From assembly GCA_036503335.1 (NCBI GenBank), contig DASXXC010000164.1, positions 7,758 through 71,757 on the forward strand: a DNA stretch of 64,000 bases, given 5' to 3'. This document shows positions 47,126 through 48,100 of this stretch, piece by piece; positions within the stretch are counted from its first letter, which is position 1, and each line of letters starts with the position of its first letter. The notes beneath the pieces were generated by a model. It was not told the origin of the DNA and ran no database searches. It was given only the letters and a program-made list of their open reading frames with translations. The position numbers were made by a program, and so were the translations under genes. Origin of the DNA: Thermoanaerobaculia bacterium (GTDB taxonomy: Bacteria; Acidobacteriota; Thermoanaerobaculia; Multivoradales; UBA5704).

Positions 47126-48100
47126 ATGTCCCAGAAGAAGAATCCTCCCCCGCCGCCTCTGCGCTGGCCGGGCTCCGGGGGAGCCAACCTGCAGGCGAAA
47201 GCAGGGCCGGAGGGGCTGAGGAGCTCCCCGATTCGCCCGGTCCAGCCGCCGTGTCCGGTCCCGAGGCCGGTTCCGCCGCCACCGGTTGTCTTTCGGACGG
47301 CGGTGCAGCCCAGGCTCGCCGTTCCCTCATCGCGGGTCCAGCCGCCACCCCTCGCGCGGCCTCGCTTCCTGCCGGTGCCGCCACCCGTCGCGCAGGCCCG
47401 TATCCTGCCCGCGCCGGCGGTGGTCACGGCCCGGGTCGTCCAGCGGCAGAAGATGAGCGAGAACCAGCTGGATACGCTGATCCCGAAGGTCAAGACGCAC
47501 ATCCGCAAATTCGTGCGGGAGGCCTATGGCGAGGCTTCCGACAACCCTAAGATCGAGGATACGCTGGCGGAGCAGCTCAATTTTCACCAGACTCCGGAGA
47601 CCCGCAATTGCGGCTCTGTGATCACCTGGAGGCATTCCGACATGATCGGGATCTCCTACAACTCGAACAAGGTGAAGCACACGACGAGCTTCATGCAATC
47701 AATCGGCACCAAGAACGAATTCGAGGATTTTCACCAGTCACAGTATTTCAATACCAATAGCTTCTACGGGCTGACGGACAACTGTGAGCACGCCGAGATG
47801 AAGCAGATCGATCAGCTCGGCGTGCGACATCTCGACAAGATCCGGTACATCGGTATTTCGCAGCCCTGCTGCATGATGTGCGCGGCCGTGATGGCCAGTC
47901 TGGGCCTCGCGGACAAGACTCGGGGCTATCACATCAAGGGCGTCAAAAACTGGAAATGGCCGCAGTTCGTTCTCAACTATAAACGGTTTCTCTGGCCCAT
48001 CCTGGGCTACGATGCAACCATGGCGATCGGGGAGGATTCCGACAAGCTCCAGCAGGTGCTCCACCGGATCACCACGAGCGTCGACACGCAGTGGGATTGA
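47126..48100 (+). CDS. Hypothetical protein with a Pro-rich N-terminus and a C-terminal deaminase-fold-like domain (HAE...PCxxC)
   Basis: ATG 47126 lies 5 nt after CAGGAG. CEHAE has its His codon at 47789, and PCCMMC lies at 47864-47881, 24 residues after the Glu. The C-terminal half is clearly GC-poorer than the N-terminal half. Confidence 0.65.
   Translation: MSQKKNPPPPPLRWPGSGGANLQAKAGPEGLRSSPIRPVQPPCPVPRPVPPPPVVFRTAVQPRLAVPSSRVQPPPLARPRFLPVPPPVAQARILPAPAVVTARVVQRQKMSENQLDTLIPKVKTHIRKFVREAYGEASDNPKIEDTLAEQLNFHQTPETRNCGSVITWRHSDMIGISYNSNKVKHTTSFMQSIGTKNEFEDFHQSQYFNTNSFYGLTDNCEHAEMKQIDQLGVRHLDKIRYIGISQPCCMMCAAVMASLGLADKTRGYHIKGVKNWKWPQFVLNYKRFLWPILGYDATMAIGEDSDKLQQVLHRITTSVDTQWD

Follow-up and report, generated by a model that had tools for sequence, protein, structure and literature searches.

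The locus and its genes

The gene analysed here is an open reading frame (ORF) on the forward strand of a 64-kb stretch of Thermoanaerobaculia DNA (hereafter, the window). It runs from 47126 to 48100 and encodes 324 residues, exactly as the original prediction had it, and its product is predicted to comprise a disordered leader and a folded module (Table 1). We place the start at 47126, and not at a GTG at 47072, because a Shine–Dalgarno-like AGGAG lies 8 nt before this ATG; a scan for sigma-70-like promoters gave no match at the gene. Metagenome contigs from several samples are 100% identical to the window sequence and, with zero variation among them, an analysis of selection is uninformative.

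Table 1 Features of the deaminase locus, in window coordinates.
Feature	Position	Strand	Basis or remark
Strain-specific cassette, 1,028 bp, with the entire deaminase ORF and its ribosome-binding site (RBS)	47074..48101	.	Missing from sister MAG L014 (blastn, tblastn synteny)
Shine–Dalgarno-like AGGAG	47113..47117	+	8 nt 5' of ATG at 47126; direct sequence reading
Deaminase gene	47126..48100	+	Protein identical to HEY3568443.1 (hypothetical protein, Thermoanaerobaculia MAG)
N-terminal leader, residues 1-111	47126..47458	+	27% Pro, net charge about +13, no hydrophobic run, predicted disordered
Two tandem 36-nt (12-aa) repeats in the leader, PPPLARPRFLPV / PPPVAQARILPA	47341..47412	+	78% identical
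Junction motif V-V-Q-R-Q-K, residues 104-109	47435..47452	+	Just N-terminal to the module's first helix
Folded module, residues 112-324	47459..48097	+	Pfam PF14441, AF2 model, PDB profile matches
H222-A-E224, predicted zinc-ligand His and catalytic Glu, start of helix 2	47789..47797	+	Aligned to HAE of ADAT2, TadA and dCMP deaminase
P247-C-C249-M-M-C252, predicted CxxC zinc ligands, start of helix 3	47864..47881	+	Aligned to PCxxC of solved deaminases
G267-Y-H269 ... W276-K-W-P279, clade-specific loop after helix 3	47924..47962	+	Conserved polar His, aromatic-x-x-Pro
YciI-family gene with signal peptide	48116..48547	+	Pfam YCII; 16-nt gap downstream of the deaminase gene

The next gene downstream encodes a YciI-family protein and is probably co-transcribed with the deaminase gene, as only 16 nt separate the two and a scan found no terminator between them. 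We considered its product as the cognate immunity protein and rejected it: the gene is syntenic (87% nucleotide identity) in L014, a sister Thermoanaerobaculia MAG without the deaminase, its product bears a signal peptide, and YciI does not stand beside any deaminase homologue in the neighbourhoods examined. The next gene being this native, signal-peptide-bearing one, the earlier statement that no cytoplasmic immunity gene follows stands.

Comparison with L014 delimits what is strain-specific at this locus. Blastn homology between the two stops at 47073 and restarts at 48102, and the same slot in L014 holds 1,599 bp with HicA, HicB and an unrelated 266-aa ORF. Indels relative to L014 make a mosaic of the wider neighbourhood, which includes HicAB at 51962-52383, RES-Xre at 56848-57818 and a lone RHH at 48614, which seems truncated (profile positions 14-38 of 39 only). 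Judged by this synteny break, the deaminase gene, leader included, appears to have been gained horizontally as a single 1-kb unit in a variable chromosomal slot. We found no convincing repeats at the cassette borders that would point to a mobile element, and tblastn searches of phage and plasmid collections returned zero matches to the deaminase, which leaves a phage or plasmid vehicle without support.

A rare member of the OTT_1508-like deaminases

The module was originally described as an orphan fold. The protein nevertheless matches PF14441 (OTT_1508-like deaminase) with 39.7 bits against a gathering cutoff of 27 (E = 4.8e-10), a match that covers residues 222-280 and profile positions 2-64 of 64, or 59 of the roughly 213 module residues. 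Most homologues also pass this threshold, and the clade was described in 2011. A profile built from 20 homologues retrieves only deaminases from the PDB (ADAT2, dCMP deaminase and TadA) with HAE and PCxxC in register, the best match being ADAT2 (7nz7; E = 7e-4) over about 65 aligned core residues. Pfam and PDB profile searches agree, as predicted, on a deaminase-superfamily domain with the canonical HxE...PCxxC motifs, and these lie where they were first read: the His codon CAC at 47789 within C-E-H-A-E, and P-C-C-M-M-C at 47864-47881. Alignments of 20, 10 and 12 homologous modules show no substitution at H222, E224, C249 or C252; the motifs are thus no chance matches, and the expected conservation of the H, E and C residues is borne out.

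Features particular to the clade are present as well. In Table 1 of Iyer et al. 2011 (PMC3239186), the OTT_1508 signature is a post-helix-3 loop with a polar residue, usually His, and an aromatic-x-x-Pro motif; the corresponding G267, H269, W276 and P279 are invariant in the 10- and 12-sequence alignments. The same table lists a GxxK before the CxxC, a position that reads G243-I-S-Q246 in the window protein, G-I-T-Q in its closest relatives and G-I-S-K or G-V-S-K in more distant ones; the site is retained, with Gln in place of Lys in the sub-branch of the window protein. By profile and motif, the C-terminal 213 residues thus read as a rare but recognisable member of the known OTT_1508-like family of toxin-type deaminases.

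The AF2 model of the module (pLDDT 82.8, pTM 0.82) has the order b1-b2-a2(HAE)-b3-a3(CxxC) with degenerate C-terminal elements, which fits both the deaminase core and the clade description, and its predicted helices 223-231 and 250-258 carry HAE and CxxC at their N-termini. Relative to ADAT2 and TadA, the modelled module has extra N- and C-terminal helices. Foldseek searches with this model (pLDDT 82.8) against PDB and BFVD yielded no match with E < 1 and hence neither a structural placement nor independent support for the fold, and the sole phmmer match of the single protein in the PDB was a low-complexity one in the Pro-rich part.

The module is also very rare: a search of 1.84 billion proteins yields 24 representatives at E < 1e-3. 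Scanning GTDB species representatives with the module alignment and pattern gave no relative in 185,579 genomes, a word-indexed homologue search returned the window protein only, and a JGI metagenome scan added one 2-kb contig, L094. This rarity bears on whether the protein could be a divergent housekeeping enzyme of the TadA, Cdd, dCMP deaminase or RibD type. Such an enzyme would account for a weak PF00383 match (E = 8.7e-4) and for ADAT2, dCMP deaminase and TadA being the best profile matches in the PDB, but the PF00383 score (19.6 bits) is below its cutoff of 25, NCBIfam assigns 0 families, the gene is missing at the L014 locus and from all species-representative genomes scanned, and the clade-specific loop motifs and disordered leader are present. 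We consider a housekeeping role scarcely credible, in line with the original prediction on this point.

The composition step within the gene

The G+C content of the gene changes abruptly, on which grounds a native-looking N-terminus had been proposed to be fused to a low-GC module. The hand counts behind that proposal (47/60, 34/60, 30/60 and 24/60) are exact, and the drop persists in a sliding-window calculation: GC is 0.75-0.79 at 47150-47450 and 0.50-0.58 at 47450-48120, with flanks at about 0.68-0.72. A foreign toxin module recombined onto a native Pro-rich N-terminus, as in the cassette swapping of polymorphic toxins, would produce such a fall in raw GC, from about 0.75 to about 0.55 around residue 110. 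The conserved junction motif lies at this point and could plausibly serve as a recombination or processing boundary, and the module does occur behind differing N-termini in other organisms.

The step is, however, confined to codon positions 1 and 2. GC1/2/3 is.77/.62/.84 in the N-terminal part and.50/.36/.81 in the C-terminal part, and applying host codon usage to the amino-acid sequence predicts the step exactly (expected GC 0.777 to 0.591, observed 0.742 to 0.557). As GC3 is uniform and the step follows from amino-acid composition, it is no evidence of discordant origins within the gene; it is a by-product of that composition and not the mark of a fusion of native and foreign DNA. Neither is the Pro-rich N-terminus native, since the segment missing from L014 begins 52 bp upstream of the start codon and thus takes in the whole ORF; moreover, the closest homologues, from other organisms, share the same type of Pro-rich cationic leader. 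These results contradict the chimera, which we regard as very improbable. Over the whole gene, GC3 is 0.82 (z = -3.1 against 30 host genes), and codon usage is partly ameliorated toward that of the host. Along with the synteny break, this z value, the equal GC3 of the two parts and the agreement of expected with observed GC favour acquisition of the gene as one piece.

A proline-rich leader and a conserved junction

Residues 1-111 contain 30 prolines, in agreement with the Pro-rich N-terminal region of about 110 residues first described, and 71% of them are disorder-promoting. In the full-length AF2 model, residues 1-110 have a pLDDT of 39-59 and no secondary structure, and the first helix of the module begins at residue 112. 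Pfam and NCBIfam searches found no trafficking or secretion domain in residues 1-111; together with the lack of a hydrophobic run, this upholds the earlier reading that the protein has neither a Sec/Tat signal nor a known trafficking domain.

The junction, by comparison, recurs across the family. Of 17 testable homologues, 13 have the pattern [VILTA][VIL]Q[RKCLM] ahead of the module, where 1.0 would be expected, and none of 2000 shuffles scored as high (0/2000). Across the family the motif can also be written [VI][VIL]Q[RK].

The closest relatives, P0004, P0012 and L094, have Pro-rich cationic leaders of like kind. We tested the leader for homology to those of P0004, P0012, P0029 and P0030 and rejected it (BLASTP E >= 0.5; Smith–Waterman against shuffles, z from -0.7 to 1.6), the likeness being limited to composition, charge and disorder.

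Homologue contexts and candidate roles

The module is found behind eCIS_core, behind Pro-rich leaders (the window protein, P0004, P0012 and L094), behind other N-termini, or standalone. Five homologues (P0007, P0008, P0019, P0023 and P0033) are fusions to eCIS_core/DUF4157, and the standalone P0032 has genes for VgrG, a PAAR-like DUF4280 protein, TssG and an eCIS_core protein within about 6 kb. The eCIS_core fusions and Pro-rich leaders support the proposed polymorphic-toxin lineage, in which the module recurs behind other N-termini. We found no partner gene conserved across the homologue neighbourhoods, downstream positions included; a 97-aa ORF after P0039, considered as an immunity gene, looks like a fragment of an unrelated gene and was rejected.

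From these contexts we infer that the window gene encodes an OTT_1508-like deaminase, acquired as a whole gene, whose most likely role is that of an exported effector for an injection system encoded elsewhere, a reading to which we assign a probability of about 0.5. Export is favoured because five relatives are fused to eCIS_core and one lies beside VgrG, PAAR-like and TssG genes; the leader type shared with the closest relatives and its predicted disorder point the same way. The predicted zinc ligands would be His222, Cys249 and Cys252, with Glu224 as the proton shuttle in hydrolytic deamination of a base; C-to-U conversion in DNA or RNA and A-to-I conversion in RNA are candidate reactions. 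The disordered leader, linked through the 'VVQRQK' junction to the module, would direct loading or export by a contractile injection system, of eCIS or T6SS type, whose genes would lie elsewhere in the genome, and the delivered deaminase would mutate or edit nucleic acid in another cell. Such a mode of action would also account for the lack of an immunity gene.

Published work provides precedents. In eCIS cargo, a disordered N-terminal sequence for loading is combined with a C-terminal effector, and DUF4157 is an optional third part (bioRxiv 10.64898/2026.05.27.728243); the DUF4157-deaminase EAT11 is lethal to E. coli and yeast, and many eCIS toxins are without immunity genes (PMC8213781). For the OTT_1508 clade itself, PVC, T6SS and T7SS delivery and immunity-less versions have been listed (Iyer et al. 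2011, PMC3239186). [quoted passage not shown] DUF4157/eCIS_core is absent from the window protein and from neighbouring genes, the neighbourhoods of the homologues P0019, P0012 and P0004 are far from any injection locus, and the leader has no significant sequence similarity to homologue leaders beyond composition.

The lack of injection machinery in the 64 kb and of an immunity gene suits an enzyme that stays inside the cell and serves in conflict or defence, acting on phage or self nucleic acid (through abortive infection or OLD-like RNA editing) or as a toxin of toxin–antitoxin type. The protein has no secretion signal, and both the slot and its surroundings are rich in toxin–antitoxin modules (HicAB in L014; HicAB, RES-Xre and RHH in the window). 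P0023 lies directly after a Phd/YefM antitoxin gene with a 4-nt overlap, an adjacency that hints at an intracellular toxin–antitoxin mode; the fungal OTT_1508-like deaminases edit mRNA (A to I) inside the cell as part of antiviral defence (PMC12754623), and by profile the nearest relatives of solved structure are tRNA adenosine deaminases. Yet PADLOC gave no defence-system match (best, PDC-M21A, E = 0.037, 11.7 bits), no partner gene is conserved among the homologues, phage and plasmid collections are devoid of matches, the relatives with eCIS_core or beside VgrG, PAAR-like and TssG point to export, and a 111-residue disordered cationic leader would have no obvious role. An intracellular function is a reasonable alternative, if clearly less probable than export.

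The gene could also be an orphan toxin cassette that is silent or decaying, a remnant of a polymorphic-toxin or eCIS locus whose delivery partner has been lost, and now either unexpressed or non-functional. Its isolation without immunity gene, machinery or promoter match, the apparently truncated RHH next to it and the indel mosaic around it are consistent with decay, but the ORF is intact behind a good RBS, all predicted catalytic and clade-specific residues are in place, the AF2 model is confident, the identical sequence was recovered from several samples, and codon usage has been partly ameliorated. We find decay unlikely.

Equally doubtful, in our view, is a more specific proposal, by which the window protein, P0004, P0012 and L094 would form a distinct bacterial sub-branch of OTT_1508 in which a cationic Pro-rich disordered leader and an 'hhQ[RK]' junction replace DUF4157. 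Leader and junction might then be a new, self-contained signal for export, loading or processing, or the nucleic-acid-tethering tail of an intracellular editor or defence enzyme akin to the fungal OLD A-to-I editors.

Relation to known deaminase systems

With the OTT_1508 clade (PF14441; Iyer, Zhang, Rogozin & Aravind 2011, NAR 39:9473), the window protein shares HxE...CxxC, the post-helix-3 loop and degenerate C-terminal elements. Acidobacterial members, PVC-metallopeptidase (DUF4157/eCIS_core) fusions and immunity-less versions of this clade were already listed (PMC3239186). The window protein differs in belonging to a very sparse sub-branch with Gln for Lys in GxxK, and in having a Pro-rich, cationic leader in place of a recognised trafficking domain.

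Among eCIS-associated toxins, the DUF4157 proteins (EAT11 of Amycolatopsis nigrescens, Geller et al. 2021; AlgoCIS Cgo1/Cgo2) also have a disordered N-terminus followed by an effector, a region that the window protein is predicted to possess. Common to both are deaminase effector chemistry, predicted in the window protein, and the frequent absence of an immunity gene. Whereas relatives of the module carry DUF4157 in cis or next door, the window protein has none, and the 47 kb upstream and 16 kb downstream of its gene are free of eCIS operons.

DddA (Burkholderia, dsDNA), SsdA (Pseudomonas syringae, ssDNA) and MafB19-type toxins belong to the same superfamily and likewise have a C-terminal zinc deaminase domain, with mutagenesis or killing of recipient cells as the expected outcome. 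These toxins carry trafficking domains, of the T6SS or another kind, and their immunity genes (DddI, SsdI) lie next to them. Neither sequence (phmmer against PDB) nor Foldseek searches matched the window protein to these toxins. SCP1.201 and MafB19 fall in the C-terminal hairpin division of the superfamily and OTT_1508 in the helix-4 division (Iyer 2011, PMC3239186).

Fungal OTT_1508-like OLD editors, likened here by family assignment alone, share the Pfam clade and the HxE...CxxC centre, and they demonstrate that OTT_1508 members can be A-to-I RNA editors (PMC12754623). They differ in being intracellular enzymes of eukaryotes that come paired with ZAO zinc-finger transcription factors, a partner that is not found at the window gene. 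Among solved structures, profile search places ADAT2/Tad2 and TadA nearest to the module, with HAE and PCxxC in alignment, but the window gene is accessory and not universal, receives no NCBIfam TadA assignment, and encodes added helices and a disordered leader.

Implications

The locus is a cautionary case for reading gene fusions from base composition, as a sharp intragenic GC step can arise wholly from a Pro/Arg/Ala-rich segment abutting a Lys/Asn/Ile-rich domain, and third-position GC and synteny are the proper tests for a chimera. For the recognition of effectors, the 'VQR' junction and cationic Pro-rich leaders may help to identify cargo of contractile injection systems that is without DUF4157.

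Bacterial toxin deaminases such as DddA are a source of base-editing tools. In the literature on the OTT_1508 clade, we found no solved structure, and the only characterised members found are the fungal A-to-I editors. As the module is compact (about 213 residues), confidently modelled and immunity-less in a clade for which no solved structure was found, the window protein is a reasonable candidate for biochemical screening. If the window protein and its closest relatives do form a sub-branch of their own, they would represent an immunity-less deaminase and a fold variant without counterpart among solved structures, with a potentially new substrate specificity that would be of interest for base editing.

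A member of the OTT_1508 deaminase clade

The deaminase protein (324 residues) has the same sequence as HEY3568443.1, which is annotated as 'hypothetical protein' in a Thermoanaerobaculia (Acidobacteriota) MAG, and its gene has AGGAG 8 nt upstream of the ATG. The original prediction had read a deaminase fold from the motifs CEHAE, with its His codon at 47789, and PCCMMC, and both positions are exact. It had also called the domain an orphan, which does not hold, as residues 222-280 match the OTT_1508-like deaminase family PF14441 with 39.7 bits, where the gathering cutoff is 27. 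A PF00383 match in Pfam is sub-threshold, and NCBIfam has no model for the protein. Searching all PDB sequences with a profile of 20 homologous modules (residues 112-324 here) retrieved deaminases only, with ADAT2 (7nz7, E = 7e-4) and dCMP deaminase (2hvv, E = 8e-3) followed at weaker E-values by TadA and CMP/dCMP deaminases, and each alignment sets HAE opposite HAE and PCxxC opposite PCxxC.

Across every homologue alignment H222, E224, C249 and C252 are invariant, which bears out the motif-based claim. G267, H269, W276 and P279 are likewise invariant and correspond to the clade signature of an extended loop, a conserved polar residue that is usually His, and aromatic-x-x-Pro (Iyer et al. 2011, PMC3239186). 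The 'GxxK' motif from the same description is GISQ in the window protein and GISK in more distant relatives. Judged by its sequence, the window protein is a deaminase of the OTT_1508 clade that is intact and lacks none of the predicted catalytic and clade residues. AlphaFold2 models the module confidently (pLDDT 82.8, pTM 0.82) in the order b1-b2-a2(HAE)-b3-a3(CxxC), then a loop and four helices, a predicted arrangement that fits the description of the clade as having degraded C-terminal elements. Foldseek found no match with E < 1 for this model in PDB or BFVD, and the placement thus rests on sequence profiles and motifs.

Table. Features of the window and of the sister contig
Feature	Position	Strand	Remark
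Deaminase ORF	47126-48100	+	324 aa
Junction motif VVQRQK	47435-47452		residues 104-109
PCCMMC	47864-47881
Lanthipeptide-dehydratase fragment	74-886		adjoins SF1 helicase-like gene
SF1 helicase-like gene	825-4481	+	1,219 aa; AAA_11/AAA_12, weak nSTAND3 match
Lone RHH/CopG gene	48614-48835		apparently N-terminally truncated
HEWGH protein	48864-50957	-	697 aa; signal-peptide-like N-terminus
HicA/HicB toxin-antitoxin module	51962-52383	-	within 10 kb of deaminase
Xre-MbcA-ParS antitoxin + RES-domain toxin	56848-57818	+	within 10 kb of deaminase
ORF in deaminase slot of L014	L014:6267-7067	-	266 aa; no Pfam match

A whole-gene acquisition

Sliding-window GC within the gene falls from 0.75-0.79 to 0.50-0.58, between flanks of roughly 0.68-0.72, and the four 60-base counts that had revealed this drop (47, 34, 30 and 24) were exact on recount. 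The step is real in raw GC and absent at synonymous positions: GC1, GC2 and GC3 are.77,.62 and.84 for residues 1-111, which contain 30 prolines, in line with the predicted Pro-rich N-terminus, and.50,.36 and.81 for residues 112-324. Re-coding the amino-acid sequence of each half with the codon usage observed across 30 host genes gave an expected GC of 0.777 (observed 0.742) and 0.591 (observed 0.557). Amino-acid composition accounts for the whole step (0.186 expected, 0.185 observed), the first part being rich in Pro, Arg, Ala and Gly and the second in Lys, Asn, Ile, Phe and Thr. The atypical composition belongs to the gene as a whole, whose GC3 of 0.82 compares with a host mean of 0.916 (sd 0.031; z = -3.1).

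A sister Thermoanaerobaculia MAG (L014, JBJMHA010000095), whose TPP enzyme is 92% identical to that of the window, is collinear from the TPP gene through YciI, protease, PPK2, thioredoxin and desaturase. DNA homology ends at 47073 and restarts at 48102, and the 1,028 bp specific to the window consist of the deaminase ORF, 52 bp containing the RBS, and nothing else; in L014 the equivalent slot is occupied by 1,599 bp that carry HicA, HicB and a 266-aa ORF. Because this break encloses the entire ORF and its RBS, the Pro-rich 5' part is no less foreign than the 3' part, and we reject the proposed fusion of a native N-terminus with a foreign low-GC module. The deaminase gene entered a variable slot complete, and it cautions against inferring chimerism from raw GC. 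No flanking repeats mark the cassette borders.

The neighbourhood is a mosaic relative to L014 (window 48538-48822, 49554-51139 and 51946-52233). The RHH/CopG gene is window-specific, the window's HicA copy is missing from L014, which keeps a HicB fragment, and only the C-terminal 229 aa remain there of the 697-aa HEWGH protein. The latter matches no Pfam family at E <= 1e-3 and, from its motif, may represent an uncharacterised metalloprotease family. The SF1 helicase-like gene (GC3 0.75, host mean 0.92) is probably another acquired gene and possibly defence-related. Several metagenome runs hold contigs 100% identical to window 46648-55840. The short-read contigs that carry the deaminase gene (Logan contigs L001-L006, mapped to 46648-55850) all break off within the TPP-enzyme gene (46648-46827), and four of these six also stop at ~55835; strains may differ, or coverage may fail, at these two places, not at the cassette border at 47073.

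Relatives, leaders and a conserved junction

The module is rare: phmmer, run exhaustively over 1.84 billion representative proteins, matched it to just 24 at E < 1e-3, a profile search added ten relatives forming an 'LCCLYCAAQ' sub-branch, and a single JGI metagenome contig carries it. A pattern scan of 185,579 species-representative genomes and tblastn against phage and plasmid collections found none. The module does recur, in four architectures: fused behind PF13699 (eCIS_core, once named DUF4157 or PVC-metallopeptidase; P0007, P0008, P0019, P0023 and P0033), behind Pro-rich cationic leaders (the closest relatives P0004, P0012 and L094), behind other N-termini, and standalone.

The window leader is disordered and cationic, with 29% Pro over residues 1-103, a net charge of +13, a 12-aa tandem repeat and no hydrophobic run, and it lacks secondary structure in the full-length model (pLDDT 39-59). 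Leaders of the three closest relatives carry PPVYRP...VLQRK repeats, with 21-26% Pro and net charges of +13 to +33. Homology among leaders is not demonstrable beyond composition, and we therefore claim only a shared leader type.

Just before the module's first helix lies a motif, [VILTA][VIL]Q[RKCLM], which 13 of the 17 proteins that could be tested have, where 1.0 is expected (0/2000 shuffles reach 13); the proteins carrying it are related, so it is a conserved boundary element, not an independent recurrence. Its form [VI][VIL]Q[RKCLM] also occurs in P0004, P0006, P0007, P0019, P0021, P0029-P0033 and L094, with variants such as VVQRQK, VIQCGR, TIQLRK and IQRM, 3-50 residues ahead of that helix irrespective of the N-terminus. 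Akin 'VLQRK' units are repeated within the leaders of P0004 and P0012. The motif might mark a boundary for processing, recombination or loading.

Genomic context and proposed role

As originally claimed, no immunity gene follows the deaminase. The downstream YciI gene encodes a signal peptide, is also present in L014 (87% nucleotide identity) and adjoins no deaminase homologue; we reject it as an immunity gene and regard it as a native neighbour. The deaminase is thus without a cognate immunity gene, a lack reported for many toxins of extracellular contractile injection systems (eCIS; PMC8213781).

Among relatives, the standalone P0032 has a separate eCIS_core gene, VgrG, a PAAR-like DUF4280 protein and TssG within ~6 kb. 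The contexts of P0019 (an eCIS_core fusion on a 736-kb contig), P0012 and P0004/P0039 are ordinary or island-like chromosomal, with no injection locus within 10 kb and no credible downstream immunity gene. P0039, a strain variant in the cluster of the closest homologue P0004 (L097:1-21275), shares its island with genes for a tyrosine integrase, a TIR-domain protein, an Rhs/YD-shell protein of 1,685 aa and an IS1 transposase; immediately 3' of the deaminase, L097 differs from L007. In the distant relative P0036, a 110-aa ORF with no family assigned overlaps the deaminase gene at its downstream end.

Family context and literature suggest that the protein is most likely an exported effector that would deaminate nucleic-acid bases in another cell, with C in DNA, or A or C in RNA, as candidate substrates, and that its disordered leader would load it into a contractile injection system whose genes would lie elsewhere. 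In eCIS cargo, a disordered N-terminal sequence for loading precedes an optional DUF4157 and the effector at the C-terminus (bioRxiv 10.64898/2026.05.27.728243). Both E. coli and yeast are killed by a DUF4157-deaminase (PMC8213781), and PVC, T6SS and T7SS delivery as well as immunity-less versions are listed for the clade (PMC3239186). Against export counts the absence of an eCIS operon from the window, given that ~88% of known eCIS toxins lie at most ten genes from one (PMC11297309); nor did Pfam searches of 37 ORFs and inspection of the remaining ORFs by eye reveal any contractile-injection, T6SS or T7SS gene in the 64 kb.

The main competing reading keeps the protein inside its own cell, in defence, in editing or in a toxin-antitoxin-like role, which would suit a neighbourhood rich in toxin-antitoxin modules and the presence of fungal OLD A-to-I editors in the same clade (PMC12754623). 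It also draws on P0023, an eCIS_core and OTT_1508 deaminase fusion directly after a genuine Phd/YefM antitoxin gene with a 4-nt overlap (L096:7011-8638), which is a toxin-antitoxin-like arrangement for a DUF4157-deaminase in a single metagenome instance. However, the deaminase has no PADLOC match and no partner gene conserved across homologues was found.

Toxin context, PVC-metallopeptidase fusions, acidobacterial members and immunity-less versions were all in the 2011 description of the clade, to which the window deaminase is a sparse addition. Mildly new are a sub-branch in which cationic Pro-rich leaders and a conserved 'VQR' junction replace DUF4157, and a confident predicted structure that lacks a Foldseek match among solved structures; deaminase screens could usefully include the protein.
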